Assembly: GCA_963845755.1 (NCBI GenBank)
Contig: CAWJTV010000041.1
Coordinates: 1-64,000 of the forward strand
Source of the DNA: an uncultured Planctomycetota bacterium
Lineage (GTDB): Bacteria; Planctomycetota; Planctomycetia; Isosphaerales; Isosphaeraceae
DNA: 64,000 nucleotides
Direction of reading: 5' to 3'
Positions 13,298 through 41,882 of this stretch are shown piece after piece. The notes beneath the pieces are model-generated. The model was not told the DNA's origin. It searched no databases and worked only from the letters and a program-made list of their open reading frames with translations. How positions within the stretch are numbered: the stretch's first letter is position 1; each line of letters opens with the position of its first letter. Position numbers and translations under genes: made by a program.

Positions 13298-15025
13298 GGC
13301 CGCCGCACGAAATCCGGACAAAGCATCCGCGACGAATCTCGGCATCTCATCCAGCCCGGCGACAAGCCCTTCTACGCTGGCCCTATGGTCGGAATGGCGT
13401 TGCCAATACTCTCGGCCGGCGTGGAGTACCGCACAGAGTAGATCGCCAGGGAAATAGTTCCCCTCGGCCAGCGGGTCGGTGCCCAGATGCTCCAAGGCCA
13501 GCGGCATCAGGAACATGAGACCCTCACGCTGTCCGATCATTAGGCGCACTCAACAATAAGTTACCGAATTTGGCTCTGTTTTCTGTGCGGTCGTATCTGA
13601 TAATTCCACTCGCCGTGAAAACTGTTACGGCGTATGAGGACTTCGGATAATTGCATACTGGATACGGTCTTTGCCTTCTGGTAGTGATTCTCGTCGAGCC
13701 AAGCGTGAACTTCCAGGCCCTCCTTGGTTCGCGTGCAGCCGATCAGCTTGACGACGATCTCCAAGGTCTCCAGGGGAACACCTCGCCAATTGCGGGTGAT
13801 GTGGCAAAAGAGCCGATGCTCGATCTTGTTCCACTTGCTCGTGCCCGGTGGATAGTGGCAAAGTTCCACTGCCAGGCCCGTTTCGTTGGCGAACTGTTGA
13901 ACGGCCCACCTCCAGAGGCGCGTTCGCGGGCTGTTGCTGCCCCCACTGTCGGCCGTGATCAGCAACCGCGTCGCTCGCGGATATCTGGGTTGCCCCAGGC
14001 GCTCCCACCAGCGACGAATCGCGGCGACCGCGAACTCGGCCGTATCGTGGCTGATCCCCACCGACACGCCGGCTTCGTTGTGGGCCAGGTCGTAGACCCC
14101 GTACGGCACCGCCTTGCCGAGCTTCTTGTCCGGGAAGTCATGGGTCTTGACCTTCTTGGGGTCTCCCTTCCTCCGGTAACTGCGACCCGGATTCTTGAGA
14201 TTTCCCAGGGGCTCTTTCTTCTTCGTATCCACCGATATGGTCGGCTGTCCCGCACGCTGGAAGGCGGTGACTCGCTTGCTGATGTGTCGGAATTGTGCAT
14301 CACGATCCGGATGCTGCTTGCCTTCGATCGTCTTGCGGTTGGCTTGCAGGCTATAGCCGCACTCATGCAGGAGTCGGCCCACCGTGTTGGCGCTCACCGC
14401 GAACCCGTCTCGCGCCAGCTCATCCGCCAACGTCCGCGTGCTCTTACACGTCCATCGGAGTGGCGACATGGGGTCGCCTCGCGCCGGCATCGACCAGCTT
14501 CTGCAGGGCTTCGACGAGCTTCGGCTGCTCGGACTCGCGGCATTTACGGCCGCCGCCAGACCGGCGTTGTTGGGTCGGCGGTGGCGAGTTGAGATCATCC
14601 AGTTCCCGAATCCCGGTTCGAATCGTGCGGTCCGACATCCCTGTAGCAGCAGCCACCGCTTCGATGCCGCCCCAACCGAGCGACCGCGCCTCCACTGCGG
14701 CCCATCGCCTTCAAGCGCGCTCATCCAAGTCCCCGACAATCGCGGAATACTTCTCACGAATCCATTCGACGACTTGTGTGTTCGGCATCCTCGGAAATAT
14801 CATCCAACCTGCCGTCGTCCGTCAATACCAATTTCGGTAACTTATTGTTGAGCGCACCCTTAGTCTCAGATCCTCCACGGTGAGCCGCCCGATCGGGATC
14901 TTGCGTAGACGAAGGCATTTCGTGACAAGCGAGGTATCTTCAGGCCCGGGTGACGGCGACGAGATGCCCTCGAGCTGGTCGAGGCAGAGATTGCGTCGTT
15001 CGGCTTCGAAGTCTCGGATACTCAT
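13292..15025 (-). pseudogene. CdiI-type (contact-dependent inhibition) immunity protein interrupted by ISAzo13
   Basis: Removing 13543-14859 plus one TAA rejoins LRKIPIGRLTVEDLRL|MIGQREGL..PLAEGNYFPGDLL in frame. Confidence 0.85.
13543..14859 (-). mobile_element. ISAzo13-family IS (transposase ~13561-14788 with an internal stop and a frameshift)
   Basis: TIR ..CTCAACAATAAGTTACCGAA; 3-bp TSD TTA/TAA; GDPMSPLRWT, ISVDTKKKE, PPGTSKWNKIEHRLF motifs. Confidence 0.92.
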
Positions 15026-16109: not shown

Positions 16110-16971
16110 GTCGGGTAAGGAGGTGCTGTCGCCAGCACCCCCTCCCCTCAGAACTGCACGGGCGCCGTTTCGACGCATGTAGCTCAAGCCTTCAACAACG
16201 CCTCTGCGTGGCACGACCGAGCGGCTCCGCCGGCCCACGACACCCCTAACGAGACGCGGTCTCCCCATTGGCCTTGGGGTCAACCTGGACGTTACTGCGA
16301 CCGAGCCGGCTACCGAGGTTCGGCGGGGGCCGCACCACGGACGTCGCCGCCCGTAACAGTTCTGCATTGCCCCCTTTGCCGGTTGGCTGTCGGTTCACGT
16401 CCGTCAACACCCGGGGGAAGTCGGCTCGCTTTCGCGCGGGGTGATGTCCCAACCCCGATCCGGCCCGTTACAGGCCGACGTTCGCTTCCTCCCCCGTCCT
16501 TTACCCGCCGCCCCATCGGCTCGCCTTGCGACGGGCCTACCCCGCGGGAGGACGACGGGCTTACCACGTTGCATCGCAGGAATCCTCATGGGTTAGGCCC
16601 CGCCTCGACGCCGGTGGCTCGTCATCTGCGCCGGATGAGTTAGGAGCATCCGGACCTGGCCACTCACCGTTTTGGTCCAAGCCTGTCAGCACCTTTGGCT
16701 TGTTCTTGGTGACGACGCTTACGGCGGTTCACCTGGGTTGGCCGTACCCCGCGCCCCTGGTCCCCGACCACCTCGATGCTGGCAGTCGCGGCCTCGGCTC
16801 GCGATCCGGCCGCCACCCTTACGGGTGAGGATCCGTTGTCCCGAGGGCTTCGCACCCCGCCGTTGCCGGCGACGCACGCCCCGGTAGGGGACTGCTGGCA
16901 GAACAGCAGGTGTCGTCACCTCCTCATAATTGGAAGAGCAACACACTTCCTGCGACACCCTCGTGTCGCAC
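16110..16971 (-). ncRNA. ORF-less group II intron (862 nt) inserted in an attC core
   Basis: 5' GTGCG, DV GAGCTACATGCG..GTGCAGTTC, DVI ending CCCGAC; homologous to the two long introns; flanks rejoin as GTTAGG|CGG. Confidence 0.9.
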
Positions 16972-17028
16972 CCTAACGCCCAAGATCAGCGGCCCGCGGA
17001 GCGGGCCCGCTGGATCGCTTCGTTAGGC
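16972..17028 (-). repeat. attC site (R' split by intron)
   Basis: cctaac..cagcggcccgcggagcgggcccgctg..gttaggc. Confidence 0.9.
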
Positions 17029-17051
17029 GCGAACAGGGCGGCTAGGAGTCG

Positions 17052-17276
17052 TCACGCGCCCGCGACTACAACGTACCCCTCAACCCAGTGGTCCTGATCG
17101 ACTCGGTACTCATCGACGTGGAACCCGTCCGGTACCTCCGAGAAGCCGGGCAGGCGACCCAAGCGCGCCACGGCCGCGTCAGCTTTCTCTCGTGAGGAAT
17201 ACACGCCAAGGAACTTGACATCCTCGCCGCCGTCTTCCCGCGTATGCACGTGCTGGAGCACGAAGACGCTCGCCAT
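17052..17276 (-). CDS. Small acidic putative immunity protein
   Basis: VFVLQHVH..DVKFLGVYSSREKA..PGF..PDGFHVDEY..WVEGY. Confidence 0.7.
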   Translation of the reverse strand: MASVFVLQHVHTREDGGEDVKFLGVYSSREKADAAVARLGRLPGFSEVPDGFHVDEYRVDQDHWVEGYVVVAGA

Positions 17277-17293
17277 TGTGGCCCTCCCGATCG

Positions 17294-17506
17294 TCACTCG
17301 AACGCCCGGTCGCCCCACTTCTTGATCTTGCTGAACTCGCTACCTGGCCCGGTCGGGTAGTTCCCGGCCCCGTACATATCGTCGAGCAACCGCTCGGCGA
17401 AGTCGCGCCCATTCTCGATCGCGAAGGGCCGCTCCCCCTGCGCCCAACCGGGCACATCATCGGCCGCCTCTTTGCCACTCAGCCCCGACTTCCTCTTCTT
17501 GTGCAT
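17294..17506 (-). CDS. Stand-alone polymorphic-toxin-tip-like protein
   Basis: GKEAADDVPGWAQGERP..FAERLLD..YG..GPGSEFSKIKKWGDR resembles RHS C-terminal toxin tips. Confidence 0.55.
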   Translation of the reverse strand: MHKKRKSGLSGKEAADDVPGWAQGERPFAIENGRDFAERLLDDMYGAGNYPTGPGSEFSKIKKWGDRAFE

Positions 17507-17584
17507 CGCGTTCGCCGGGCCACAGCACCCATGATCCAGTGGTAGTGAACCCCATTATACCAGGACCCGCTTCGGCTCTTCGAC

Positions 17585-17640
17585 ACCTAACGCCCAGGTT
17601 CAGCGGCCCGCCTCAGGCGGGTCCGCTGCAACCGGAGGTT
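17585..17640 (-). repeat. attC site split at R'' by the IS91-like element (R'' lies at 19051-19057)
   Basis: acctaac..gtccgctgcaaccggag|gtt; joined to gttaggc at 19051 it matches the attC sites at 13240 and 21716. Confidence 0.85.
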
Positions 17641-17805
17641 CAAGTAAGCCGCTGCGCGGCAGGTTCCCTTGACCTCATCCAGTGTATCGCGACAGCCTGT
17701 CCCGGTCACCGCCTTCCCTCTCACCGTTCTCTGGCACTTCCCCGCGCCGTGGGCCATGGTTCTTCCCAGTGGCCATTTCCTCCTCCACTGCCAAAGGACC
17801 CGCCC

Positions 17806-18672
17806 ATGACCTCCTTGCTCCGTCAGCGCATGCGCCAGGACCTCCAGCTCGCCGGACTCTCCGAGCGCACTCAGGACGCTTACCTCCGCGCCCTCCGCCA
17901 ACTCGCCGACCACTTCCACACTCCCCCCGACCGCCTCACCGAGGCCCAACTCCGCGACGACTTCCTCCACCTCAAGAACGATCGCCGCTTCGCCGCCGCT
18001 TCCCTCGGCATCGCCTACAGCGGCATCAAATTCTTCTATGCTCACACCGTCCCCCGCGATTGGCCCACCCTCAAACGCCTCCGCGTCCCCAGGGAAAAGC
18101 GGCTCCCCGACGTCCTCTCCGTCGACGAGGTGCGACAGCTCATCGCCGCGGTCCGCATGCCCCACAATCGTACCTATCTCCAGACCGTCTACTCGCTGGG
18201 GCTCCGACTCGGCGAAGGGCTGCACCTTCAGGTCAGCGACATCGACAGCGCCCGGATGATGGTCCACGTCCATCGCGGCAAGGGGGCCAAGGATCGCTTC
18301 GTCCCACTGCCACCCCGCACCCTCAAGGCCCTTCGCCAGTATTGGGCCACCCATCGCCATCCCTCCTGGTTGTTCCCCGCCACCGGCCGCGATCACCACC
18401 AGGCGGCACACGCCGACGGTCCCATGGAACGCTCCAGCGTCCAGGGGGCCCTCCGCCGCGTCGTCCGCGACCTGGGCTTCCGCAAGGCCATTTCGATTCA
18501 TACGCTTCGACATAGTTATGCGACCCATCTTCTCGAAGCCGGGGTCAACCTGCGGCTGATCCAGCAGTCCCTCGGCCATAGCTCGTTGCAGACCACCATG
18601 GTCTACCTCCATCTGACCACCGTCAGCCACGAGCAGGCCCGCGAACGCATCGACGCGTTGATGGAGTTTTGA
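17806..18672 (+). CDS. Tyrosine recombinase (IS91-associated type)
   Basis: SAM-like N-domain; GLRLGE, GKGAKDR, HTLRHSYATHLLEAG, LGHSSLQTTMVYLH. Confidence 0.93.
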   Translation: MTSLLRQRMRQDLQLAGLSERTQDAYLRALRQLADHFHTPPDRLTEAQLRDDFLHLKNDRRFAAASLGIAYSGIKFFYAHTVPRDWPTLKRLRVPREKRLPDVLSVDEVRQLIAAVRMPHNRTYLQTVYSLGLRLGEGLHLQVSDIDSARMMVHVHRGKGAKDRFVPLPPRTLKALRQYWATHRHPSWLFPATGRDHHQAAHADGPMERSSVQGALRRVVRDLGFRKAISIHTLRHSYATHLLEAGVNLRLIQQSLGHSSLQTTMVYLHLTTVSHEQARERIDALMEF

Positions 18673-18675
18673 GCC

Positions 18676-18975
18676 ATGCCCACCGTCGCCGAGGTGGTGC
18701 GGCGGTATGGTCCGGCCTATCTCGAACGGTTCGGGGCCACGATGCCCGCGGCGCACCGGAAGGTGCTGCGCGACATCGCCGCCTGCCGGACCGCGCGCTG
18801 GGAACGGTGCTCTACCGTTGCGAGGACTGCGGGCGGATGCACGCGTTGGGCCGATCGTGCGGCAACCGCCATTGCCCGAGCTGTCAGCGCGACAAGGCCG
18901 AAGCCTGGCTCGAGAACCACACCGATCGCCTGCTGCCGTGTCCGTACTTCCTGGTCACCTTCACCCTGCCGTCGG
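18676..18975 (+). pseudogene. IS91-family (Y2) transposase, N-terminal Zn-binding fragment
   Basis: IAACRT(frameshift)LG..CEDCG..SCGNRHCPSCQ..LLPCPYFLVTFTLP, then truncated. Confidence 0.88.
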
Positions 18976-19089
18976 GGCTGTGTGGTCGCGCCGGGCTTCT
19001 TGAACAGGGATTGGAGGTCCGGCTTCGCGGACTCCAATCCTTTATGGTTGGTTAGGCTCCGCACCCTCACCGGCCCTGGGCGCAATCCC

Positions 19090-19422
19090 CTATGGTAACT
19101 CGAGCACGGAGGCCGCCGGATCGGATAGGAACGCTCGGATGTCCGCAGCCCTCGACCGCAACAATGCTTCGACATCCCGCGTCGGTCCGTTGCCGACTCG
19201 CAACCAGATCACCTTCGGTGGCGGGCCGCAGGTCGCCGACAGGTTCCGGAAGTCCGCATCCTTCGAGACCACCGCCAGGCCGCGGGCCGCCGCGTAGGCC
19301 CGCACCACCCGGTCGTCGGCTGAGGACAGGCCCACCAAGAGTACCTGCTCGGACCCCGGGAAGTCATTCGCCAGCAGCGCCGGCAGCCGCCGCGACAGGT
19401 TCTGGTCGAATAGCAAGCTCAC
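19090..19422 (-). CDS. DUF5615/VapC45-like PIN toxin
   Basis: LLFDQNLS..VVSKDADF..GPPPKVIWLRVGN. Confidence 0.9.
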   Translation of the reverse strand: MSLLFDQNLSRRLPALLANDFPGSEQVLLVGLSSADDRVVRAYAAARGLAVVSKDADFRNLSATCGPPPKVIWLRVGNGPTRDVEALLRSRAADIRAFLSDPAASVLELP

Positions 19423-19634
19423 GCGACCGGTACCGGAAGTTGGGCGGCGGCGAAGGCGTAGCAGGCCCGGACGTCATCGGCGGTCAGCTCCGGAAACTCG
19501 GCGAGGAGTTCCGGCACGGTCATCCCCCCGGCGAGGTACTCCAAGACGTCCCGCACGGTGATGCGCATACCGCGGATGCACGGCTGGCCGCTTCGCTTGC
19601 CCGGCTCGATGGTGATGATCTGAGTGTAGTCCAT
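19419..19634 (-). CDS. DUF433 antitoxin
   Basis: ITIEPGKRSGQPCIRGMRITVRDVLEYLAGGM..FPELT..DVRAC. Confidence 0.92.
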   Translation of the reverse strand: MDYTQIITIEPGKRSGQPCIRGMRITVRDVLEYLAGGMTVPELLAEFPELTADDVRACYAFAAAQLPVPVA

Positions 19635-19723
19635 ACCACCGAGCCTATCCGCCTCTTGGATAACGGTCAACGCCCGGCTGGAGACGTTCGTTGGAGGATG
19701 GCCCTTCACGCCCATCCTCTGCG

Positions 19724-19783
19724 GCCCAACGCCGAGGCTCAGCGGCCCGCCGCAGGCGGGTCCGCCGCGTCGCTTGGTGAGGC
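19724..19783 (-). repeat. attC site (degenerate R'')
   Basis: gcccaac..cagcggcccgccgcaggcgggtccgc..gtgaggc. Confidence 0.8.
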
Positions 19784-20176
19784 GAGTCGATACCCCACCT
19801 GAACCGCCAAGCCGAGGAGCCGCTCGATGAAGCGTGGCTCCTTGACCTCCTGCACGCCCAGGCTGAAATGAGCCGTGGCCTTGAAGAACTCGGCGAACCA
19901 GTCAAGATCATTCAGGCCAGGAGGTGGCTGGAAGACATGGCCTTGGCCGCTGGCATACCGCTCGAAACCCGCTTCCGCGGCCTCGCCGATGCGATCGACG
20001 AGGAAGACGCTGCCGAGCGAGTAGCGCTTCGGCGCGGCGCCGTCGCCAACGACGAACCAGATTGCGTTATGGAGCAGGGGCTGGACGGGCCTGTTGGTGA
20101 GCAGCCGTAGCGGCTCCCCCTCGTGCAGAGACTTACCCATGCGCTCGGTGTTGTGGTACGCGACGAAGTGCCGCAC
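19739..20176 (-). CDS. Cassette hypothetical protein (reads through a mutated R'' stop)
   Basis: MRHFVAYHNTERMG.. after GGAGG; TAA in R'' changed to TCA. Confidence 0.65.
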   Translation of the reverse strand: MRHFVAYHNTERMGKSLHEGEPLRLLTNRPVQPLLHNAIWFVVGDGAAPKRYSLGSVFLVDRIGEAAEAGFERYASGQGHVFQPPPGLNDLDWFAEFFKATAHFSLGVQEVKEPRFIERLLGLAVQVGYRLASPSDAADPPAAGR

Positions 20177-20196
20177 AGTTCGCCTCCGAATCCGCG

Positions 20197-20254
20197 ACCT
20201 AACGCTCAAGATCAGCGGCCCGCGGAGCGGGTCCGCTGGATCGCCTCGTTAGGC
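20197..20254 (-). repeat. attC site
   Basis: acctaac...gttaggc. Confidence 0.92.
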
Positions 20255-20467
20255 TAAAGCAGTTGACGGAACTCGTCGATCGTGAGGCCGGCACCCCGCA
20301 CGATCGTGCCCATCGTGATCGCGTTGATTCGGATTATGGCGAGGGATGGTCACGATGCGCGTGCCGTCGGTCATCACGATGTGCTTGCCCTGACGCCGAA
20401 TGTGGAAGCCGGCTTTCTCCAAGGCGCGGACTGCGTCGAGATGATTTACGCCCGGCAGCTTGGGCAT
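20254..20467 (-). pseudogene. hicA: HicA toxin (+1 frameshift near 20330)
   Basis: MPKLPGVNHLDAVRALEKAGF..RQGKHIVM..TIPRHNP; removing one base gives INAITMGTIVRGAGLTIDEFRQLL*. Confidence 0.85.
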
Positions 20468-20473
20468 GGCTAG

Positions 20474-20897
20474 CCTGGATTCCCATGGAGGCAAAAACGG
20501 GGTAGGCTACGACGCAATCCATAAACGAAGCAAAATTCGTCGAAGTGGGTTTTCCCCTGGATTTCAAGTGGTTCTGGCTTGAAACGGCTCATCGAAACGC
20601 CTCTCTCGATGTTAGGTGATCCGTAAACTGAAAAAAGAGCATCCGCGGTGTCAACTCAATGCATCCACTGTGGTGAATTCGATAGATTTGTCGCAAGAAC
20701 CCCTTGTTTTCCAGGAGGAAGTGAGATTCGATCGACGAACATATCATCCATGGTGATCAAGTTAACTTAGTGGGAGACCCACCTTTAACTCTTGGAGGAG
20801 CATAACCAGTTCCGAGGCGAAAAGCTGAGTATCGCGGGCTTTTTTCCAATCATGCGGCAACAAATGTTAGCCCAATCTGCCTCCATGGGAATCCAGG
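20474..20897. mobile_element. MITE copy 2, between hicB and hicA
   Basis: Same TIRs and CTAG flanks as 15277-15700; one substitution seen. Confidence 0.9.
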
Positions 20898-21095
20898 CTA
20901 GATGGTGACCTCGATCTCGCGAGCCTCGGCTTCCGAGGCCAGCTCCGCCGCCACCTCAAGGTACTCGCGGATGGAATCGGCGATATTTTCCAGGGCCTCT
21001 GCCTCTGTGGTGCCCTGCGTGCAGCACCCCGGCAGGCCAGGCACGCTGACGCTGTAGCCCTCGTCCGAGCGATAGAGTGCGACCTTGTAGATCAT
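20898..21095 (-). CDS. hicB: HicB antitoxin
   Basis: YSVSVPGLPGCCTQGTTEAEALENIADSIREYL. Confidence 0.92.
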   Translation of the reverse strand: MIYKVALYRSDEGYSVSVPGLPGCCTQGTTEAEALENIADSIREYLEVAAELASEAEAREIEVTI

Positions 21096-21198
21096 GTGGA
21101 CCTCCCGCCATCAATTCTATCGCGGGGTCGCCGGTTGGGATAGTGCGGCGCGGCCCGTGTCCGACCGAGCCGCGCCCGTGCGCGGCCCTGCCTCCACC

Positions 21199-21256
21199 GC
21201 CTAACGACCCAAATCAGCGGCCCGCGTAGCGGGTCCGCTGGATCGCCTCGTTAGGC
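21199..21256 (-). repeat. attC site
   Basis: gcctaac...gttaggc. Confidence 0.92.
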
Positions 21257-21706
21257 GGTCAGCGACACGAAGATTGCATCCGGGAATCGCTTGTGAGGAA
21301 CCGTGCGACTCAGTTCTCCTCGGCTACCGCGGACCCGCATGCTGGCCCCGGCGGGACTTTCCACCCGAATCCACTGGATATCTGTCGCTCCAGTGTCGAG
21401 CACGTGCTCAAACTCTTCTTCCGAGAGCAGGCAAACCGTTGATGTGCCGCACACGAGGCAAACGAAGGTAGCGTGTTGAACCGCGGAATCCCGCCAGATG
21501 GTGAGGTCGTCGAAAGTAAATGTGAACTGCCAAGGTGCTTCATCCTTGGTGGTGTGCTTCATGACGACCCGACGATCGTGGTTAATCTGATAGTGGCCGT
21601 ACCGATGATCTGCCTTGTTGAGCGCCTTGAATGACGGGTGTTCCACAATCTGGGCGAGCGCCGCACCATGGAACAGGTGTTTCTCTTGGATTTTCACGCG
21701 GTACAA
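21251..21706 (-). CDS. Cassette hypothetical protein
   Basis: ORF fills the cassette; GGAGG RBS; stop in R''. Confidence 0.75.
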   Translation of the reverse strand: MYRVKIQEKHLFHGAALAQIVEHPSFKALNKADHRYGHYQINHDRRVVMKHTTKDEAPWQFTFTFDDLTIWRDSAVQHATFVCLVCGTSTVCLLSEEEFEHVLDTGATDIQWIRVESPAGASMRVRGSRGELSRTVPHKRFPDAIFVSLTA

Positions 21707-21715
21707 CCTCCGCCG

Positions 21716-21773
21716 GCCTAACGTGAAGGTTCAGCGGCCCGCGGAGCGGGTCCGCTGCAACCGCCGGTTAGGC
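21716..21773 (-). repeat. attC site
   Basis: gcctaac...gttaggc. Confidence 0.92.
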
Positions 21774-22382
21774 GGACCCGGAGGCCGCTCTACGCATCGA
21801 GTTATCGTGATTGATCCCTCGGAGACAACGTGCCAGCAGCGCTCCGAGAAGGCCCGTCCAGAAGGATATGGTGGAATGGCAAAGTCGTCGATAGCCATCC
21901 GGGCTGATGGCGCGGAGTTGAGTCGCATTGTATCGAGACGTGGTCCCACGATCGTGTGCGACATTGAAACTGACCGTCTCGGCGCCGATATCGCCGAAGG
22001 TCTCGCCTCCCGCGAACCCTCGACCGGGCCCCTCCGTTGTCCAGACCCGCTCTCCGGCATGCGTAGGAGTATACTGCAGTTTCGTATAATGATCATCAAT
22101 AAGTGGCGTTGTCACGAGGTGCGGCATGATGTGCTCGTCACACCATGGGCCGATGCAGAGCACGAGGTAGCCTGCCCCGAAGATTAAATAGCCGGTCCAG
22201 GCCAACTCATTGGGGCTTCGAGTGGAGAGGCGGCCGATCAGGGCAACGCCGTTTGAGGCGATCGCGAGGCTCAGCATCACACGTGACCAGGATTCCGTAT
22301 CGGCGCGCAACGCGGCGAAGGTGATGCCGAGGAACACGACAAACACCATGAGTCCGGCGATCGAAATACGTGGCCTCCTCAT
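21768..22382 (-). CDS. Cassette planctomycete-type membrane protein
   Basis: MRRPRISIAGLMVFVVFLGITFAALR..LAWTGYLIFG; homologous to 4512..5055. Confidence 0.75.
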   Translation of the reverse strand: MRRPRISIAGLMVFVVFLGITFAALRADTESWSRVMLSLAIASNGVALIGRLSTRSPNELAWTGYLIFGAGYLVLCIGPWCDEHIMPHLVTTPLIDDHYTKLQYTPTHAGERVWTTEGPGRGFAGGETFGDIGAETVSFNVAHDRGTTSRYNATQLRAISPDGYRRLCHSTISFWTGLLGALLARCLRGINHDNSMRRAASGSA

Positions 22383-22421
22383 ATGCCGGCCTCGGTCACA
22401 CCTCGTTCGGAATGCAGGCCG

Positions 22422-24834
22422 GTCGGGTAAGGAGGTGAGGTTGCCCTCACCCCCTCCCCTCAGAACCGTACGTGCGCCTTGCGACGCATACGGCTCAAGC
22501 CTTCTCGAACGCCCCTCGCGGGACACAGCCCAGTCCGCCAGCCTTCCTCTTGCCGTGGATCTGCCGATGGCAGTGGGCGTGCAACAACTCCAAGTTGTCG
22601 TACGTCTCACCGCCGCCTCGATTGCGCCAGATCCGATGATGAATGTGCCAGGGTTCGTCTTCGGCCTGAAGAGGCTGCCCGCACATCACACATCGACCCC
22701 CTTGTCCCTTCCAGAGATACTCGATCCGGCCTCGACCTGCCAGGGTGTGCGTCAGCTTCCAGGCCGACCTCTCCTCCAGGTAGAGCTCCCACTCCGGATC
22801 GTAGGGGTTGGCCGCACTCCGGATCTTCCTCCACCGCAGGACCTTGACCCCGGCCGCTTTCATCAGCCGGATCCGTCGCGCCGAGCCCGTGCTGTCACGG
22901 ATTGTGCCCGTGAAGACCCAGTCTCGGTGGCCCTCGCGCTGGAAGTATTTCCTCTTGATCCACTTCCAGTTCTTCTCGGGATGGCGTCGGCGACACCATC
23001 TCATCAGCTTCCGGAAGATCCGATCGTCCACCGCATGGAAGATGCGCTTACTGACCGCATAACGGTGGTACATGGTCCAGCCCTTGATCTGTTGATTCAA
23101 GCGCCGGATTAAGTCGCCCGCCGTCTTGCCGCCCGAGTCGTCGATCGTCGCCTGGATCTTGGCCAGGAACGTCTTGATGCTCCGCTTCGATGGCTTGATC
23201 AAGACCTTGCCATTAGGGAAGCGTCGCACCGCCTGTCCCAGGAAATCGAAGCCGTCCTCAAGATGGGTGATCCTGGTCTTCTCGTGGGAGAGTTCGAGAC
23301 CCCGCTTTCGTAAGAAGTGTTCCACGAGGGGCTGGACTTCACCTCGCAGGAGGACCCTTGATGTGCCGGTAATGATGAAGTCATCCGCATATCGGACCAG
23401 ATGGACCTTGCCTCCCGCACGCCGTCGGCGTGTGTTGCTGAAGCGCCGCTCCAGCAACTCTTGCAACCCATCCAGGGCCCGGTTCGCCAGCGCGGGGGAG
23501 ACGATCCCCCCTTGAGGTGTGCCTTCCGTGGTGGCGAACAGGACGTGCTTCTCCAGGAACCCGGCCTTCAGCCACTTCCGGAGCACCTCCTTGTCCATGG
23601 GGATATGGTCGATCAACCAACGATGGCTGATCCGATCAAAGCAGGCTTTGATATCCCCCTCCAAGATCCAGCTCGGACCGGGCGGACCCCTGAGGATCTT
23701 GTGACACTCATCCAGGGCATCGGCACAGCAGCGTTCCAGTCGAAAGCCGTAGGAATGGCCGTCGGCGAGGGACTCTGCGATGGGATCGAGGCCCAGCAGG
23801 TAGAGGGCCTGCATGGCTCGATCGGCCATGGTAGGAATCCCTAAACCACGTCGCTGGCCGTTGCTCTTGGGAATGTAAACCCTGCGGAGCGGTTGCGGCC
23901 GATAGCCGTGCCGACGCAGGGTGCTGAAGGCCGCCGACTTGACCTCCGGCGTGTTCCAGAGGATTCCGTCCACGCCGGGGGTCCGCGCACCCGAATTACT
24001 GACGACTCGCAAGATGGCCAGAGCCCGGCCACTGTACGAGTGGGTGAGCAGGTAGACCAGGGCTTTGGCTTTGTTCCACCTGCCCTCCCGGACTGCCTTT
24101 ACGATACGCGCCTGGAGCCGACGGACCGTGCGCCAGACTTTCTTCCAGGAAATGGAATTCCAGTCGGGCGCATGGCCGGGGACCGCACCAACAGGCGTTG
24201 CCGCCTGTGCCTTATCTGCTTTGCCCCCTGAGTCAGTTGGCCGAGGTTCTCTCGTAACGGAAGACCCGGGGGAAGTCGGCTCCCTTTCGGGCGGGGTGAT
24301 GTCGCCTGTCGGCTCAACCCCTATCCGACCGGTTAGTGGCCGGCGTTCGCTTCCTCCCTCGTCCTGTACCCGCCGCCCCATGGGCTCCTCTTGCGAGTCG
24401 CCTACCCTCGCGGGGAGGACGACGGGCTTACCACGTTCCGACGATGTGCCAAGGTGGGGAGGGTCGCCGCTCTTCGCCGGTGGTACGGCATCTGCGCCAG
24501 GGGAGTTAGGAGCCCCCGGACCTGACCACGTGCCCTTTTGGCCCAAGCGTGACAGCATCTTCCGCTTGTTCTCAGTAACGACGTTTATCGCGGCTTCACT
24601 TTACGTTGACCCGTCCACCCGATCCTGGTCCCCGACCGCGTTGATGCTGGCAGTCGCGGCGTCGGCTCGCGCTCCGGCCGCCCTCCCGAGGGAGGAGGAT
24701 ACGTTGTGCCGGGGGCTTGGCACCCCTCCGTTGCCGGAGGCGCACTCCCCGGTGGGATACTGCTGGCAGAACAGCAGGTGCTGTCGCCCTCTCCGAGGTC
24801 GCAGCACAGTCACATCGGCGACTTCGTGTCGCAC
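22422..24834 (-). mobile_element. Group II intron (2413 nt, CL1/IIB-like) inserted in an attC core
   Basis: 5' GTGCG; DV GAGCCGTATGCG..CGTACGGTTC; 3' CCCGAC; flanks rejoin as GTTAGG|CGG. Confidence 0.95.
22495..24381 (-). CDS. ltrA: Intron-encoded reverse transcriptase/maturase with HNH endonuclease (start uncertain)
   Basis: WNSISW..VRRLQARIVKA, TPGVDG, GTPQGG, RYADDF, GFDFLG, CVMC..HIHH..NLELLHAHCHRQIH. Confidence 0.93.
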   Translation of the reverse strand: MGRRVQDEGGSERRPLTGRIGVEPTGDITPPEREPTSPGSSVTREPRPTDSGGKADKAQAATPVGAVPGHAPDWNSISWKKVWRTVRRLQARIVKAVREGRWNKAKALVYLLTHSYSGRALAILRVVSNSGARTPGVDGILWNTPEVKSAAFSTLRRHGYRPQPLRRVYIPKSNGQRRGLGIPTMADRAMQALYLLGLDPIAESLADGHSYGFRLERCCADALDECHKILRGPPGPSWILEGDIKACFDRISHRWLIDHIPMDKEVLRKWLKAGFLEKHVLFATTEGTPQGGIVSPALANRALDGLQELLERRFSNTRRRRAGGKVHLVRYADDFIITGTSRVLLRGEVQPLVEHFLRKRGLELSHEKTRITHLEDGFDFLGQAVRRFPNGKVLIKPSKRSIKTFLAKIQATIDDSGGKTAGDLIRRLNQQIKGWTMYHRYAVSKRIFHAVDDRIFRKLMRWCRRRHPEKNWKWIKRKYFQREGHRDWVFTGTIRDSTGSARRIRLMKAAGVKVLRWRKIRSAANPYDPEWELYLEERSAWKLTHTLAGRGRIEYLWKGQGGRCVMCGQPLQAEDEPWHIHHRIWRNRGGGETYDNLELLHAHCHRQIHGKRKAGGLGCVPRGAFEKA

Positions 24835-24891
24835 CCTAACGCTCAAGATCAGCGGTCCGCGCAGCGGGTCCGCTGCATCGCTTTGTTAGAC
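24835..24891 (-). repeat. attC site (R' split by intron)
   Basis: cctaac...gttagac. Confidence 0.9.
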
Positions 24892-24900
24892 AATTGCACC

Positions 24901-25404
24901 CTACTCGAACGCGAACCACATGCTTTGCTCGAACCGTTTGCGAGCCTCGCCAGCCAACTGATCCCGGATCGCCCGCAAGGAGAAGCCGCCCACGAGTTTG
25001 CCGGCTTCGACGTACATCCAGTCCTCGACCTCCGGCCGATCGACCTCCACTCGCTCGCCCGGAGCATGTCCCTTAAGGCCCGCGGCATCCGGTCCCAAGG
25101 CCCCGCGGAAATGGGCGCCGTCGAAGGAGACATCCTCGAGCCAGAGGTAATGCGTCCCCGTACCCTCGCGGACGGGAACCTTGATCGAGAAATCGCCCTG
25201 GCCGGGCCCGGGTGACGACAGCCGTTCGATGAAGCCGTCGAGTGATTCGCGGGCCCGCCGGGCCGCGGCTCTCATCGGCTCGTCGCCGCTCGGGACAGCG
25301 ACCGCCAGTTCACTCCCCTGCGGGTCGCCCGCGGACCGCCGGTGTTGGCCGCACCCGAACACTGCAGAGAGGACCCCAGCCAGGACAGCGATGATCCTAC
25401 GCAC
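24901..25404 (-). CDS. YegJ/DUF2314 family lipoprotein
   Basis: Lipobox-like VFGC; MRAAARRARESL, YLWL, VEDWMY..GKLVGGFS. Confidence 0.8.
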   Translation of the reverse strand: MRRIIAVLAGVLSAVFGCGQHRRSAGDPQGSELAVAVPSGDEPMRAAARRARESLDGFIERLSSPGPGQGDFSIKVPVREGTGTHYLWLEDVSFDGAHFRGALGPDAAGLKGHAPGERVEVDRPEVEDWMYVEAGKLVGGFSLRAIRDQLAGEARKRFEQSMWFAFE

Positions 25405-25422
25405 GAGATCGGTACCCTTTCC

Positions 25423-25468
25423 GTCTAACGCCCAAATTCAGCGGGTCCGCTGCAATGCCTCGTTAGGA
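25423..25468 (-). repeat. attC site with a 12-bp internal deletion
   Basis: gtctaacgcccaaattcagcgggtccgctgc..gttagga lacks the cagcggcccgcg arm. Confidence 0.8.
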
Positions 25469-26193
25469 CGCTTCGGCCTTAAGCTTGGCCAGTATCTTAT
25501 GGCCGATCTTTGAGCAATCATAAAAGGACTCGCCAACCGCATCGAGTTCCCAGCCGAGGCGTAAAGCCGATTCTAACGAAGTCGCGTCGGCTGCACCACG
25601 AACCAGTCTGCCTGATCCTCCATTGACCAGATGAGAACGCCCAGGCGACTCCCGGCGAAACGATACTGGGCCGTGCCAGGCCAACCAGACGTCCTCGGCC
25701 CTTCGTCGAACAAGCCCGCCAAATCCCGTAGAGACTCGGAGCTTATCGGACTATTCTGCGCTTGCACGAGGGCCGGCTGCCTGAGGACGACATGATAGTC
25801 CCATACGCAGGAGTAGACGTAGGTCGAGAAGTGTTGGGCGAACAGTTGCCACGCGGTACCTCCCGAGTCAACATCAACCAACACCGGGGGATCATCCGAG
25901 CCGTCGAAGCGGAGCGCCCAGGTACAGACACCCTGATTCTCCCAACGGATGGGGAGCAATCGCCCGACGGTCGATTCGGCGAAGGTGAAGTCCCGGACTG
26001 GGATTGGCGGGTCCTCGTTGCTGTGCATCGCGAGGATGGACAGGGCACTTTGGTACGAGTACCATTCGCGCACCGCCAGCGGCAAACGCATCCCGAGGCG
26101 TTGTTCGGTACTCTCAACCTCGCCCAACGCCGCCGTCGAGGTTCGTGGTTGGGTGCCAAGGAGTTCAAACGTGGCGCTATGGAACGATCCCAT
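25463..26193 (-). CDS. SMI1/KNR4 family immunity protein (frameshift near the C-terminus)
   Basis: EQRLGMRLPLAVREWY..ENQGVCTWA..DDPPVLV..FSTYV. Confidence 0.8.
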
Positions 26194-26203
26194 TGTCCCC
26201 GCC

Positions 26204-26264
26204 ACCTAACGCCAAAGATCAGCGGCCCGCCGACAGGCGCGTCCGCTGCATCGCCTCGTTAGCC
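26204..26264 (-). repeat. attC site
   Basis: acctaac...gttagcc. Confidence 0.9.
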
Positions 26265-26266
26265 GG

Positions 26267-27002
26267 TCACATGAACTTGCGCCGCTTGAACGCGGCAACA
26301 TCCTTGGCGGTGAGTTCGAACCACTCGCCATTCTTCCGCCGCTCGGCGAATCGTCCGTGCCAATAGTTCTCAATGCCGACCGGATCGTCGGTCTTGATCG
26401 GGTGAACAACCTTGACCTCCTCGGGGAGTTGGATCGCGAGTTCACGCTCGCGCCGGCCCACGGCGTTCGAGCGGCCAACCTTGTAGAAGCGGCCGGACTT
26501 CATCAGGTATACGTATCCGAGCTCCGATTCGGGTTCGACGCCTGCGTCCTCGGTAGCGTCCGGCTCGCACTGGAAGGCTTCACGATAACCGTGTCGCAGA
26601 GGGCCGCCACATCATGCCAGCCACGCGTCAGGGCGAACTCGCGCAGCCGCTCAGCGAGTTTCTGCTTGCCGCCGAAGCGGGAAAACGTGTTGTGCCACGG
26701 GAATCCCGGCTCGGTCCGGGCCTTCAACTTGATCTCATTCGCAACCGGGAAGCGTCCCAGCTCGCGTGCAAATATAGCGAGGCATTCGAGCAAGTCGTCC
26801 TCGCTACGTGGACCCTGAAGGACATTCGGCTGGAATCCGGCCTCTACAAGCGCCGTCGCCCCAGCCAGCCCAGAGCCTGCCCATCCAGTCCGAGGACTTG
26901 ATGCCGGTCTCGGCTTCGAAAGCGCGCGATACCCAGCGGGGACCCGCCGTTTTGCTGTGCGGTCCGCTTTATCTCCGAGAGGATGTGCGCCTTGGTGATC
27001 AC
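26267..27002 (-). pseudogene. GIY-YIG (T5orf172/MUG113-like) nuclease-domain protein, frameshifted
   Basis: N-terminus MITKAHILSEIKRTA; C-terminus YVYLMKSGRFYKVGRS..IENYWHGRF..NGEWFEL. Confidence 0.8.
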
Positions 27003-27016
27003 GTCTCTTCAGATAC

Positions 27017-27074
27017 GGCTAACGCCCAAGATCAGCGGCCCGCGCAGCGGGTCCGCTGCATCGCCTCGTTAGAC
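27017..27074 (-). repeat. attC site
   Basis: ggctaac...gttagac. Confidence 0.92.
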
Positions 27075-27080
27075 GGCAAG

Positions 27081-27522
27081 CTATACCCGCGCGAGTAATT
27101 CACGGTAGCCCTCGAACTCATTCTTCCAGTCCCCGTAAACGGCGACAAGCCCACAGCTCGGACAGCGGCACCCGAGGTAAAGCCATTTCACGTCCTCGCT
27201 GTCGTCATACAACGAGACGCCGACGGTGATCTCGAATTGCTCGCCGCCGCAGGGGCAGGCGCATTCGCCCAAATCGGCCTCCGCGAGAAACTCGGCGCTG
27301 TCGCCGATGGGATGCTCGTTGGAGCAGACCACACAGATGCGGACCGCCGCCCCCTGGTTATCGTCGAGGAGAAGGCGAAACAACTTGCCGCCGCACCGGC
27401 ACACCGCATCGGCGAAGGAGTGGGCGACGTATGCGTTGGCCTTGCTGTACGCGCGTGATCTCCTGACGGATGTCGGGCTGGCTATCACCGTAGCGATACT
27501 TCCCGCGCTTCTCAATTGCCAT
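27081..27522 (-). CDS. Cys-rich Zn-ribbon hypothetical protein (frameshift near the 5' end)
   Basis: MAIEKRGKYRYG.. then CRCGG..CVVC..CACPCG..CRCPSCG..YGDWK. Confidence 0.7.
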
Positions 27523-27537
27523 CGGAGTTACCCTACT

Positions 27538-27596
27538 CGTTAACGGAAAGTTCAGCGGCCCGCCGCAGGCGGGTCCACTGCAACGCGGAGTTAGAC
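27538..27596 (-). repeat. attC site
   Basis: cgttaac...gttagac. Confidence 0.85.
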
Positions 27597-27926
27597 GCGG
27601 CCATGGCCGACCGGCACCTGCCACAGCCCTATCTGATGAGAGTCATCGCGGAATCCACCGACAAACGCCGAGACTTCGCTACCGACAGGGCACCAGTCAC
27701 CCGCACGATATTTCTCGGGCGTCAGGCCCACAATGACGATGATCTCCAGCAGGGCAGGGAAACCGACGCCGAGGTCGACCCACGCCCCGAACGGGGATTT
27801 GACGACGACCGTACCAGTGACGGACTGCCCGTAGGCAAGGCGCTGCTCGAGCGCCTCCCAATCGGCAACCCGCTCGGGCGAGCGGTGGCCTGGAAACAAC
27901 CGGTCAAGATCGTCGCTGACGCTCAT
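27591..27926 (-). CDS. S1-like OB-fold protein
   Basis: GQSVTGTVVVKSPFGAWVDLG..ALLEI..VGSEVSAFV. Confidence 0.75.
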   Translation of the reverse strand: MSVSDDLDRLFPGHRSPERVADWEALEQRLAYGQSVTGTVVVKSPFGAWVDLGVGFPALLEIIVIVGLTPEKYRAGDWCPVGSEVSAFVGGFRDDSHQIGLWQVPVGHGRV

Positions 27927-27936
27927 TGCCCCACCG

Positions 27937-30349
27937 GTCGGGTAAGGAGGTGAGGTTGCCCTCACCCCCTCCCCTCAGAACCGTACGTGCGCCTTGCGAC
28001 GCATACGGCTCAAGCCTTCTCGAACGCCCCTCGCGGGACACAGCCCAGTCCGCCAGCCTTCCTCTTGCCGTGGATCTGCCGATGGCAGTGGGCGTGCAAC
28101 AACTCCAAGTTGTCGTACGTCTCACCGCCGCCTCGATTGCGCCAGATCCGATGATGAATGTGCCAGGGTTCGTCTTCGGCCTGAAGAGGCTGCCCGCACA
28201 TCACACATCGACCCCCTTGTCCCTTCCAGAGATACTCGATCCGGCCTCGACCTGCCAGGGTGTGCGTCAGCTTCCAGGCCGACCTCTCCTCCAGGTAGAG
28301 CTCCCACTCCGGATCGTAGGGGTTGGCCGCACTCCGGATCTTCCTCCACCGCAGGACCTTGACCCCGGCCGCTTTCATCAGCCGGATCCGTCGCGCCGAG
28401 CCCGTGCTGTCACGGATTGTGCCCGTGAAGACCCAGTCTCGGTGGCCCTCGCGCTGGAAGTATTTCCTCTTGATCCACTTCCAGTTCTTCTCGGGATGGC
28501 GTCGGCGACACCATCTCATCAGCTTCCGGAAGATCCGATCGTCCACCGCATGGAAGATGCGCTTACTGACCGCATAACGGTGGTACATGGTCCAGCCCTT
28601 GATCTGTTGATTCAAGCGCCGGATTAAGTCGCCCGCCGTCTTGCCGCCCGAGTCGTCGATCGTCGCCTGGATCTTGGCCAGGAACGTCTTGATGCTCCGC
28701 TTCGATGGCTTGATCAAGACCTTGCCATTAGGGAAGCGTCGCACCGCCTGTCCCAGGAAATCGAAGCCGTCCTCAAGATGGGTGATCCTGGTCTTCTCGT
28801 GGGAGAGTTCGAGACCCCGCTTTCGTAAGAAGTGTTCCACGAGGGGCTGGACTTCACCTCGCAGGAGGACCCTTGATGTGCCGGTAATGATGAAGTCATC
28901 CGCATATCGGACCAGATGGACCTTGCCTCCCGCACGCCGTCGGCGTGTGTTGCTGAAGCGCCGCTCCAGCAACTCTTGCAACCCATCCAGGGCCCGGTTC
29001 GCCAGCGCGGGGGAGACGATCCCCCCTTGAGGTGTGCCTTCCGTGGTGGCGAACAGGACGTGCTTCTCCAGGAACCCGGCCTTCAGCCACTTCCGGAGCA
29101 CCTCCTTGTCCATGGGGATATGGTCGATCAACCAACGATGGCTGATCCGATCAAAGCAGGCTTTGATATCCCCCTCCAAGATCCAGCTCGGACCGGGCGG
29201 ACCCCTGAGGATCTTGTGACACTCATCCAGGGCATCGGCACAGCAGCGTTCCAGTCGAAAGCCGTAGGAATGGCCGTCGGCGAGGGACTCTGCGATGGGA
29301 TCGAGGCCCAGCAGGTAGAGGGCCTGCATGGCTCGATCGGCCATGGTAGGAATCCCTAAACCACGTCGCTGGCCGTTGCTCTTGGGAATGTAAACCCTGC
29401 GGAGCGGTTGCGGCCGATAGCCGTGCCGACGCAGGGTGCTGAAGGCCGCCGACTTGACCTCCGGCGTGTTCCAGAGGATTCCGTCCACGCCGGGGGTCCG
29501 CGCACCCGAATTACTGACGACTCGCAAGATGGCCAGAGCCCGGCCACTGTACGAGTGGGTGAGCAGGTAGACCAGGGCTTTGGCTTTGTTCCACCTGCCC
29601 TCCCGGACTGCCTTTACGATACGCGCCTGGAGCCGACGGACCGTGCGCCAGACTTTCTTCCAGGAAATGGAATTCCAGTCGGGCGCGTGGCCGGGGACCG
29701 CACCAACAGGCGTTGCCGCCTGTGCCTTATCTGCTTTGCCCCCTGAGTCAGTTGGCCGAGGTTCTCTCGTAACGGAAGACCCGGGGGAAGTCGGCTCCCT
29801 TTCGGGCGGGGTGATGTCGCCTGTCGGCTCAACCCCTATCCGACCGGTTAGTGGCCGGCGTTCGCTTCCTCCCTCGTCCTGTACCCGCCGCCCCATGGGC
29901 TCCTCTTGCGAGTCGCCTACCCTCGCGGGGAGGACGACGGGCTTACCACGTTCCGACGATGTGCCAAGGTGGGGAGGGTCGCCGCTCTTCGCCGGTGGTA
30001 CGGCATCTGCGCCAGGGGAGTTAGGAGCCCCCGGACCTGACCACGTGCCCTTTTGGCCCAAGCGTGACAGCATCTTCCGCTTGTTCTCAGTAACGACGTT
30101 TATCGCGGCTTCACTTTACGTTGACCCGTCCACCCGATCCTGGTCCCCGACCGCGTTGATGCTGGCAGTCGCGGCGTCGGCTCGCGCTCCGGCCGCCCTC
30201 CCGAGGGAGGAGGATACGTTGTGCCGGGGGCTTGGCACCCCTCCGTTGCCGGAGGCGCACTCCCCGGTGGGATACTGCTGGCAGAACAGCAGGTGCTGTC
30301 GCCCTCTCCGAGGTCGCAGCACAGTCACATCGGCGACTTCGTGTCGCAC
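27937..30349 (-). mobile_element. Group II intron, second near-identical copy (2413 nt), in an attC core
   Basis: Same termini; flanks rejoin as GTTAGA|CGG; one synonymous difference noticed (CAT/CAC). Confidence 0.95.
28010..29896 (-). CDS. ltrA: Intron-encoded RT/maturase-HNH (copy 2)
   Basis: Protein identical to that of 22495..24381. Confidence 0.93.
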   Translation of the reverse strand: MGRRVQDEGGSERRPLTGRIGVEPTGDITPPEREPTSPGSSVTREPRPTDSGGKADKAQAATPVGAVPGHAPDWNSISWKKVWRTVRRLQARIVKAVREGRWNKAKALVYLLTHSYSGRALAILRVVSNSGARTPGVDGILWNTPEVKSAAFSTLRRHGYRPQPLRRVYIPKSNGQRRGLGIPTMADRAMQALYLLGLDPIAESLADGHSYGFRLERCCADALDECHKILRGPPGPSWILEGDIKACFDRISHRWLIDHIPMDKEVLRKWLKAGFLEKHVLFATTEGTPQGGIVSPALANRALDGLQELLERRFSNTRRRRAGGKVHLVRYADDFIITGTSRVLLRGEVQPLVEHFLRKRGLELSHEKTRITHLEDGFDFLGQAVRRFPNGKVLIKPSKRSIKTFLAKIQATIDDSGGKTAGDLIRRLNQQIKGWTMYHRYAVSKRIFHAVDDRIFRKLMRWCRRRHPEKNWKWIKRKYFQREGHRDWVFTGTIRDSTGSARRIRLMKAAGVKVLRWRKIRSAANPYDPEWELYLEERSAWKLTHTLAGRGRIEYLWKGQGGRCVMCGQPLQAEDEPWHIHHRIWRNRGGGETYDNLELLHAHCHRQIHGKRKAGGLGCVPRGAFEKA

Positions 30350-30408
30350 TCTAACGTCCAAGATCAGCGGCCCGCCGCAGGCGGGTCCGCTGCATCGCCT
30401 CGTTAGAC
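30350..30408 (-). repeat. attC site (R' split by intron)
   Basis: tctaac...gttagac. Confidence 0.9.
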
Positions 30409-30411
30409 GTG

Positions 30412-30849
30412 TCACGCTATGCCGACGGACACGCCGAACGGCACCTCAAGCTCGGCGAAGATGATCAGGGCTCGGTGATCAACCTCGAAGCCTCCGGTGC
30501 TGCAATTCGTATGGTAGCTGCAATACACGTTGACGGACAGGCGCTCCTTCAAGCCTTTCAGATAGGCGACGTGCGGCCGAACGGCGAGCCAGAGCGATTC
30601 CAGATGGACTTGCAGCGGACGACCCCGGGGTACCGGAGCGGAGTAGGACCACATGTCATGCTCGTAGCCCCTGGGAGAGGTCGGCGGAAGCTTCTCGTCC
30701 CTCCGATGCGCATGAGTTGGCACGATACCAAGTTCGGCTGTGATCGCCTCCAAGTCTCCGATGTCCCCAAAGATCCGGAGCGTGGCACCGAAGCGAAAGA
30801 AGTACTCGGGTTCCGCCATGACCTCCTCGACTTCAGAAGCCATGCCCAC
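30412..30849 (-). CDS. DUF4279-like protein
   Basis: ATLRIFG..ITAELGIVPT..DMWSY..HLESL..FAELEVPFGVS. Confidence 0.7.
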   Translation of the reverse strand: MGMASEVEEVMAEPEYFFRFGATLRIFGDIGDLEAITAELGIVPTHAHRRDEKLPPTSPRGYEHDMWSYSAPVPRGRPLQVHLESLWLAVRPHVAYLKGLKERLSVNVYCSYHTNCSTGGFEVDHRALIIFAELEVPFGVSVGIA

Positions 30850-41819: not shown

Positions 41820-41879
41820 GGCTAACGTCCAAGATCAGCGGCCCGCCGCAGGCGGGTCCGCTGCATCGCCTCGTTAGCC
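41820..41879 (-). repeat. attC site (first cassette)
   Basis: ggctaac...gttagcc; near-identical to 30350-30408. Confidence 0.92.
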
Positions 41880-41882
41880 GTG

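Follow-up and report, generated by a model that had tools for sequence, protein, structure and literature searches.

Group II introns of a soil planctomycete very probably home into integron attC sites by base pairing on the cassette-sense strand

A 64,000-nt stretch of DNA from an uncultured Planctomycetota bacterium (Isosphaeraceae; assembly GCA_963845755.1, contig CAWJTV010000041.1, positions 1-64,000), hereafter the window, carries three group II introns on its minus strand, two of 2413 nt and one of 862 nt that lacks an open reading frame (ORF). All three interrupt attC, the recombination site of integron gene cassettes, within its R' core. Our results indicate that they are very probably CL1-lineage IIB1 introns of a soil planctomycete whose three exon-binding sites (EBS1, EBS2 and EBS3) are complementary to the right end of attC on the cassette-sense strand. 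The three complementarities point to reverse splicing between R' positions 6 and 7. In the proposed mechanism, EBS2 would pair with TCTTGG in the spacer between L' and R', EBS1 (CCUAAC, the same letters as the R'' arm) with GTTAGG of R', and EBS3 (G) with the last R' base, C. The intron ribonucleoprotein would reverse-splice at the point so defined, and the HNH domain of the intron-encoded protein presumably nicks the other strand to prime reverse transcription. The overall process would be ordinary IIB retrohoming aimed at a repeated recombination site. The anatomy of the introns, their pairings, the precise junctions seen against empty sites and the preference among sites were observed directly. 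It is inferred that the introns may still be active, that the attC may stay usable by the integrase, and, as the sequence-only reading had proposed, that the introns may travel with the downstream cassette and be spliced out of a transcript shared with the cassettes.

Introns and the attC sites that hold them

The introns, their attC sites and the surrounding array are as follows. A caret marks an insertion or crossover point, and contigs of the host genome carry C numbers.

16110-16971, minus strand: group II intron without ORF, 862 nt; EBS1 as in the full copies, separate ribozyme lineage (Rfam; domain 1 tree)
22422-24834, minus strand: full-length group II intron copy 1, 2413 nt, GUGCG...CCCGAC (Rfam RF02012 and RF00029; junctions exact according to the empty-site paralogue at C39:452005)
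27937-30349, minus strand: full-length group II intron copy 2, 2413 nt, at GTTAGA^CGG (Rfam; empty-site paralogue at C18:79074/79075)
16972-17033, minus strand: attC holding the ORF-less intron, R' GTTAGG^C (sequence reading, fold)
24835-24896, minus strand: attC holding copy 1, R'' GTCTAAC...L'...R' GTTAGG, with the seventh R' base, C, at 22421 (sequence reading, fold)
30350-30411, minus strand: attC with copy 2, R' GTTAGA^C; an unoccupied copy of this upstream cassette end is at 41822 (sequence reading, fold)
11679-41880, minus strand: cassette array with 23 attC matches, 3 of them intron-occupied (nhmmer, own attC profile)

A sequence-only reading of the window had placed three insertions at these coordinates, inside the attC R' core and on the cassette strand, and both Rfam and the junctions bear it out. 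Every element matches the Rfam model of domains 1 to 4 (RF02012, 105-107 bits over the full model length) and that of domains 5 and 6 (RF00029, 46-62 bits) above the gathering score, begins with GUGCGAC, contains a 34-nt domain 5 with AGC, and ends in CCUUACCCGAC. RF02012 (D1D4-7) was set aside as evidence of class, as its class label is not verifiable. The junctions read GTTAGG^GTGCGAC...CCCGAC^CGG at two elements and GTTAGA^...^CGG at one, which places the insertion point between R' positions 6 and 7 each time (GTTAGG^C twice, GTTAGA^C once). Copies 1 and 2 differ at a single base over 2413. The domain 1 (D1) of the ORF-less intron is only 75% identical to that of the full copies, against 89.7% to that of an ORF-less intron from another genome, and in the D1 tree it groups with L056m and the C4 relative, two ORF-less introns outside attC (SH-aLRT 99). 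The same EBS1 is therefore carried by two ribozyme lineages of one genome.

The interrupted sites have the anatomy of attC, with R'' (RYYYAAC), an inverted repeat and then R' (GTTRRRY), and their bottom strands fold into an R stem, a spacer and an L stem with a bulge. A 20-nt pattern of the attC right end matches the window minus strand 17 times, against 0.02 expected. The attC profile recovers 95 sites in the 14.3-Mb genome, in arrays of 30, 23, 15, 9, 7 and 6 sites on six contigs, with 5 single matches on other contigs. The arrays run on one strand between small ORFs, and the cassette ORFs share the strand of the introns: one ends just before the attC at 24896, and another begins about 40 nt past the intron, at 22382. 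A link to an integrase is provided by contig C3, which holds the only integron integrase of the genome above the model cut-off (485 bits on TIGR02249, cut-off 265), divergent from an attC array; an occupied attC lies 968 bp from this gene.

Exon-binding sites and their covariation with the exons

All three exon-binding sites were placed by fold and covariation, at the following positions.

24504-24512, minus strand: EBS1 loop CUCCUAACU of copy 1; EBS1 CCUAAC pairs with GUUAGG (alignment, consensus fold, covariation)
30019-30027, minus strand: EBS1 loop of copy 2 (loop search)
16638-16646, minus strand: EBS1 loop of the ORF-less intron (loop search, alignment)
24570-24575, minus strand: EBS2 CUGAGA of copy 1 (copy 2, 30085-30090); pairs with UCUUGG or UCUUGA at -14 to -9 (alignment columns 332-342)
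16704-16709, minus strand: EBS2 CCAAGA of the ORF-less intron; 6/6 Watson-Crick pairs with TCTTGG (alignment, pair counts)
24472, minus strand: EBS3 (G) in the D1 coordination loop of copy 1 (copy 2, 29987; ORF-less intron, 16606); pairs with the 3'-exon C (column 459)

The loop CTCCTAACT, which the sequence-only reading had proposed as EBS1 (CCUAAC), occurs exactly three times in the window, once per element; shuffled sequences contain it 0.09 times on average, and none of 100 shuffles reaches three. The proposal stands. In a consensus fold built from 25 diverse D1 sequences, 74 of the 93 pairs show compensatory changes, and EBS1 forms the terminal loop of a hairpin. The EBS2 candidates of the same reading, CCAAGA and CTGAGA against TCTTGR, were likewise upheld by alignment and pair counts, and lie on the 5' side of an internal loop (columns 332-342).

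Pairing with the exons was counted over 24 introns. EBS1 is complementary to its exon in 135 of 144 cells (shuffles: mean 77, maximum 103) and EBS2 in 105 of 144 (mean 66, maximum 84); none of 2000 shuffles reached the observed value in either case. The EBS3 base, which is G, U or A, is complementary to the first base of the 3' exon in 14 of the 14 introns with a clear 3' end. The EBS1 loop changes along with its exon partner, the intron-binding site 1 (IBS1): CCTAAC faces GTTAGG in the window introns, CATCGA faces TCGATG or TTGATG in family B, a sister family in the host genome, and TCAGAC faces GTCTGA in the C4 relative.

Empty sites, site choice and strand

Across the host genome, eight introns (seven protein-coding copies and the ORF-less one) occupy seven attC sites on contigs C41, C47 and C3, one site holding a tandem pair. 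Every occupied site reads GTTAGR^C, has a different downstream cassette, and carries its intron on the top strand in the cassette direction. Two of these downstream cassettes also exist in an intron-free form. The empty-site paralogue of copy 2 (C18:79074/79075) reads GTTAGA^CGGTGGGG, with 200/200 identical positions downstream, and that of copy 1 (C39:452005 onward) has 99.5% identity and follows GTTAGC. Homology begins at the first base past the intron in both paralogues, which means that insertion was exact and made no target duplication. It is GTTAGR^C that marks the break, rather than G^TT, where the integrase crosses over.

Occupancy follows the match to the exon-binding sites. Among the 90 attCs whose R' was reached, seven are occupied: 6 of the 31 with IBS1 matched at 6/6 positions and C as IBS3, against 1 of the 59 others (Fisher p 0.006). 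The single exception to this site-class pattern has a 1-nt deletion that shifts the register. Within the 31 matched sites, 5 of the 13 with at least five EBS2 pairs are occupied, against 1 of the 18 with fewer (p 0.059).

EBS2 also accounts for the choice of strand. Because attC is a palindrome, its bottom strand (the mirror arm, the complement of R'') also shows GTTAGG^C, and does so in 15 of 66 attCs, none of which is occupied there. EBS1 alone cannot separate the two arms; EBS2 forms only 0-2 of 6 pairs at the mirror arm and mostly 5-6 on the top strand, and thereby breaks the symmetry and fixes the sense orientation. The result is a simple rule of strand choice.

Some copies elsewhere in the genome have more complex structures. 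One attC (C47:13544-20386) contains a head-to-tail intron pair, of which the upstream member is intact and the downstream member has a recombinase insert. This tandem is consistent with a second intron having inserted at the GTTAGG^ junction, which had stayed unchanged, although the base at the IBS3 position is a G. Inserts of about 2 kb (C3:156925-158938 and C47:14621-16632; L094 and L095) split the reverse transcriptase (RT) gene of two copies at about intron position 1338 and code, on the opposite strand, for a large serine recombinase (Resolvase, Recombinase and Zn_ribbon_recom domains).

Intron-encoded protein and intron class

22495-24171, minus strand: intron-encoded protein of copy 1, with RVT_N, RVT_1 (YADD), GIIM and HNH domains (Pfam; PDB 6ME0_C); frame open upstream to 24558
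28010-29686, minus strand: intron-encoded protein of copy 2, same frame, offset 5515; ORF 28010-30073

The sequence-only reading had given the introns a protein with YADD and HNH and had put them outside class C. The Pfam domains agree with the first claim for the two full copies; the 862-nt element has no ORF. The second claim is also supported. The HNH domain (PF01844) lies at residues 494-539 (E 9.7e-11), and an endonuclease domain is reported to be absent from classes C, D, E and F (PMC4424553). The closest solved relative of the protein is chain C of 6ME0, the T.el4h enzyme, which aligns in one stretch over residues 3-541 (599 bits, E 7e-179; about 55-60% identity, as estimated by eye), whereas IIC enzymes score 126-137 bits and LtrA 127 bits. 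T.el4h is described as a IIB1 intron with a CL1 enzyme (PMC8643678). Matches to plasmid introns of E. coli and Klebsiella reach 49.5-52% identity over 97% of the protein, one in Burkholderia 54.0% over 96%, and one in Klebsiella variicola 55.0% over 84%; the other near-full-length matches (at least 94% covered) have at most 35% identity. The ribozyme has both EBS1 and EBS2, with EBS3 in the coordination loop rather than a delta base beside EBS1. These sequence comparisons strongly suggest that the protein is a CL1 member and the intron of class IIB1.

Relatives within and beyond the host genome

The nearest sister within the host genome, family B, is 81% identical to the window introns over the whole intron (its D1 80.5% identical to that of a full copy) and inserts at CTCCCGCACTTTYGATG^A; the C4 relative inserts at ...CCTTGGCGGTCTGA^. 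Family B is found at C13:328696-331085 and C45:64868-67258, with partial copies on C38, C24, C14 and C43, and its six non-attC sites share about 20 nt, GGYTCTYCCGCACTYTYGATG^A.

Relatives in other genomes were drawn from 59 loci fetched by protein, one genome per species, in which D1 and the junctions were then located; no junction was taken for loci without a D1 match, with a D1 match that covers fewer than 250 model positions, or with no start that could be recognised (L076, L077). By-eye inspection of the 38 D1-bearing junctions put 4 at attC R', 7 on the R'' side of attC in a sister lineage, 3 without flanks and 24 elsewhere. Under a strict automatic attC test, 7 of 35 junctions passed; of 300 random places, 14 did. 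Both counts are given because the strict test misses some sites, namely those without a recovered 3' exon or with differing R'' and R'; its match at L072 is probably false.

The four R' insertions are L035, at GTTGGG^CGG of an attC of the type found in the host genome, and L041a, L042 and L089b, at GTTCGG^C of attCs of about 100-128 nt, where EBS1 is CCGAAC (GCGAAC in L042). The sister lineage (L057-L060, L089a, L041b and L071) inserts 16 nt into longer attCs, at gCCGAAC...TGCTG^CAGCAG (L057-L060, L089:1751, L041:5559, L071:1795), and its EBS2 pairs with the R'' core CCGAAC; it accounts for seven insertions across three genomes. In L089, introns of the R' and R'' types share one attC. In the protein tree, the attC lineages and family B together make up a clade of 10 rows (SH-aLRT 81), within which family B is nested. 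This survey of flanks divides the case made by the sequence-only reading for a lineage specialised on attC: broad homologues lie mostly outside attC, whereas the sublineages with attC-matched exon-binding sites lie inside it.

Metagenomes were also scanned with no more than the EBS1-loop pattern, and a 5' junction was present at 11 of the 14 loci so obtained. The exon ends in GTTAGG, GTTAGA or GGTAGG at 10 of the 11; four junctions pass the strict hairpin test, and four more show the L'-R' half only. L099 of this set was not counted as support, as its putative 5' end lies 376 nt from EBS1, against about 321, and its exon is mismatched to EBS1.

Alternative explanations and points of caution

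The introns might be opportunists: ordinary homing introns with a 14-nt target that is, by chance, the sequence repeated most often in the genome, nothing in them being adapted to integrons. Such a view gains from the mechanism, which is standard IIB pairing, from the unrelated target of family B, and from the patchiness of attC targeting on the protein and D1 trees. We consider it improbable, since in relatives elsewhere EBS1 has been readjusted to the attC core of the genome concerned (CCGAAC for GTTCGG), a separate ribozyme lineage of the host genome carries the EBS1 of the full copies, and the sister lineage targets the R''/L'' side of attC. Recognition could also be mainly structural, as in class IIC, with the particle reading the folded top-strand hairpin and base pairing being secondary. 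The whole hairpin does lie directly 5' of the insertion point, which is the geometry of IIC introns, and a role of the hairpin was raised by Sonbol and Siam for UHB.I2, an intron from a soda-lake metagenome (PMC7923331). Covariation of EBS2 with its exon partner nevertheless extends to introns in non-hairpin targets, sister introns of the same architecture occupy hairpin-free sites, the R''-type lineage inserts 16 nt inside the hairpin, and R'' would sequester IBS1 in the folded form, so structural recognition appears very improbable.

Spread of one intron-bearing cassette by the integron integrase or by segmental duplication, in place of repeated retrohoming, would account for the copies in another way. 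Because the intron is located on the 3' side of the G^TT crossover, integrase action could transfer it along with the cassette downstream, and cassettes have clearly been shuffled among arrays, with paralogues on C41, C39 and C18. The occupied sites speak a different language: the downstream cassette differs at all seven of them, the two cassettes that exist intron-free differ by an exact intron at GTTAGR^C and not at G^TT, and occupancy tracks the match to the exon-binding sites. Copying of this kind is thus extremely improbable as the source of the pattern.

Several observations weigh against repeated, pairing-directed homing as proposed here. Among the well-matched sites, 25 of 31 are empty, including three on C39 with all three pairings perfect; one occupied site carries an A.C mismatch at -1, and one on C3 has its IBS2 one base out of register. 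Three of the 11 metagenome junctions lie outside any recognisable attC. The attC calls come from our own nhmmer profile, built from 14 window sites, and from our own rules, and the class assignment draws on likeness to one named CL1 enzyme. A search for sequencing runs gave 20 soil, rhizosphere and leaf-litter metagenome runs, four of which were examined, as contigs; these contained no spliced joint and no empty site of these exact cassettes, which leaves splicing neither favoured nor disfavoured. Metatranscriptome contigs that are 90-95% alike cover parts of the intron, which is not evidence that the window copy itself is transcribed. The usual start codon, finally, is AAG in six of the seven protein-coding copies of the host genome (window 24211-24213 in copy 1, 29726-29728 in copy 2). 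Homologues (MTRAATPVG...) and family B use this position as the start codon, and that of family B is intact; in the seventh copy (C47:12898) the ATG is retained, and an additional base precedes the RT domain. The frame also contains an ATG at intron position 454 (window 24381), from which it stays open; the ATG at 24173-24171 was rejected as a protein start, being out of frame. Given the AAG at the usual start, the protein may begin at the ATG of position 454, or the intact protein of family B may have mobilised the near-identical copies.

Other features of the array

No integron integrase above the TIGR02249 cut-off was found in the window. A tyrosine recombinase gene (Phage_integrase and SAM_4 domains; 17539-18672, plus strand) lies inside the array, divergent from the cassettes, and scores 94 and 72 bits on the integron-integrase model, below the 265-bit cut-off; a 66-residue N-terminal integrase fragment (42494-42691, plus strand) lies just past the last attC and has the look of a decayed integron. 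The array also contains two transposase genes (13561-14757 and 39909-41420, both minus strand), one a DDE_Tnp_ISAZ013 'Rhodopirellula transposase' (450 bits) and the other Mu-like, with an rve core and a Mu transposase C-terminal domain. At 7189-7259 (minus strand), a porin-like ORF (Porin_O_P match in 5361-7292) is preceded by a fluoride riboswitch (RF01734, 39.5 bits).

One cassette end occurs four times in three arrays, at window 30350-30549 and 41822-42020 and at C39:445622 and C39:451456. Relative to the copy at 30350-30549, it is identical at 199/199 positions in the two C39 copies and at 198/199 at window 41822, and a different cassette follows at each of the four places, which is direct evidence of cassette shuffling in the host genome.

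Comparison with known systems

The IIC-attC introns, such as S.ma.I2, are likewise mobile group II introns that favour attC (PMC3001079, PMC4424553). According to these sources, they insert into the bottom strand, opposite to cassette transcription, carry a class C protein without endonuclease, have no EBS2, and recognise a stem-loop together with a short IBS1. The window introns differ in each of these respects: their protein has an HNH domain and only weak similarity to IIC enzymes, all seven occupied sites of the host genome are on the top strand, and EBS2-IBS2 pairing, at 105 of 144 cells, exceeds the shuffle maximum of 84. A 2015 review distinguishes three target habits of bacterial group II introns and gives attC to class IIC alone (PMC4424553). 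A different class would here reach attC by plain RNA-DNA pairing and on the other strand, so that two intron classes would have converged, in a clear-cut way, in specialising on a mobile recombination site. The IS1111-attC insertion sequences, another mobile-element lineage specialised on attC, are described as DNA transposons that sit near the attC 5' end and antisense to the cassettes (PMC3001079), unlike the window introns.

In protein architecture and in target recognition by EBS1, EBS2 and EBS3, the window introns resemble the homing CL1/IIB1 introns T.el4h (Th.e.I3) and EcI5, which are described as homing to unique gene sites or spreading among the targets of one genome (PMC8643678). The target of the window introns is instead a recombination site that is repeated about 90 times per genome and is common to mobile cassettes. 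In the sense orientation, cassette transcripts could include the intron and lose it again by splicing. Targetron-style tools against integron arrays might also be developed from a natural IIB intron of this kind, directed at attC.

A bolder idea, which we regard as rather unlikely, is that the clade has become an integron-adapted hitchhiker and is more than an occupant of attC. Insertion leaves the whole attC hairpin and the G^TT crossover intact. If the idea holds, the intron would become the 5' end of the downstream cassette, and an integrase still able to use the occupied attC would carry it along with that cassette to new arrays and hosts. Co-transcription with the cassettes from the integron promoter and splicing out of the transcript would make the intron nearly cost-free. 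Recombination between R'- and R''-type copies, splicing and reverse transcription could further leave an unrelated gene with most of an attC joined to its 3' end, which would be a sense-strand route to new cassettes. Pairing-directed homing into attC as such offers testable links between retroelements and integron dynamics: carriage of introns with cassettes, polar effects on the expression of cassettes and, possibly, the birth of new ones.

The closest described case is UHB.I2, a IIB1/CL1 intron in a cassette array of a soda-lake metagenome, which immediately follows an attC and points the same way as the cassettes (Sonbol and Siam 2021, PMC7923331). Its existence in print overturns the view of the sequence-only reading that known attC introns all belong to class IIC. 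A full-text literature search found no paper besides that on UHB.I2 that deals with the sense-strand attC habit of IIB introns, and in the sources available this position is so far in print for UHB.I2 only. Its authors noted the lack of an EBS3 bulge and a 'poor conservation' of flanks among homologues, and speculated on a role of the hairpin. By description, rather than by comparison of sequences, UHB.I2 and the window introns share the intron class, the orientation relative to the cassettes and the position at the attC 3' end, and differ in their boundaries (UUGCG..GU in UHB.I2, GUGCG..AC here). UHB.I2 is a single copy on one contig, whereas the host genome offers seven independent sites. 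Homing into attC programmed by base pairing is not proposed for UHB.I2 in the accessible sections of that report; for the introns of the host genome, it is supported by the covariation of three pairings, by the empty sites and by an explanation of the strand.

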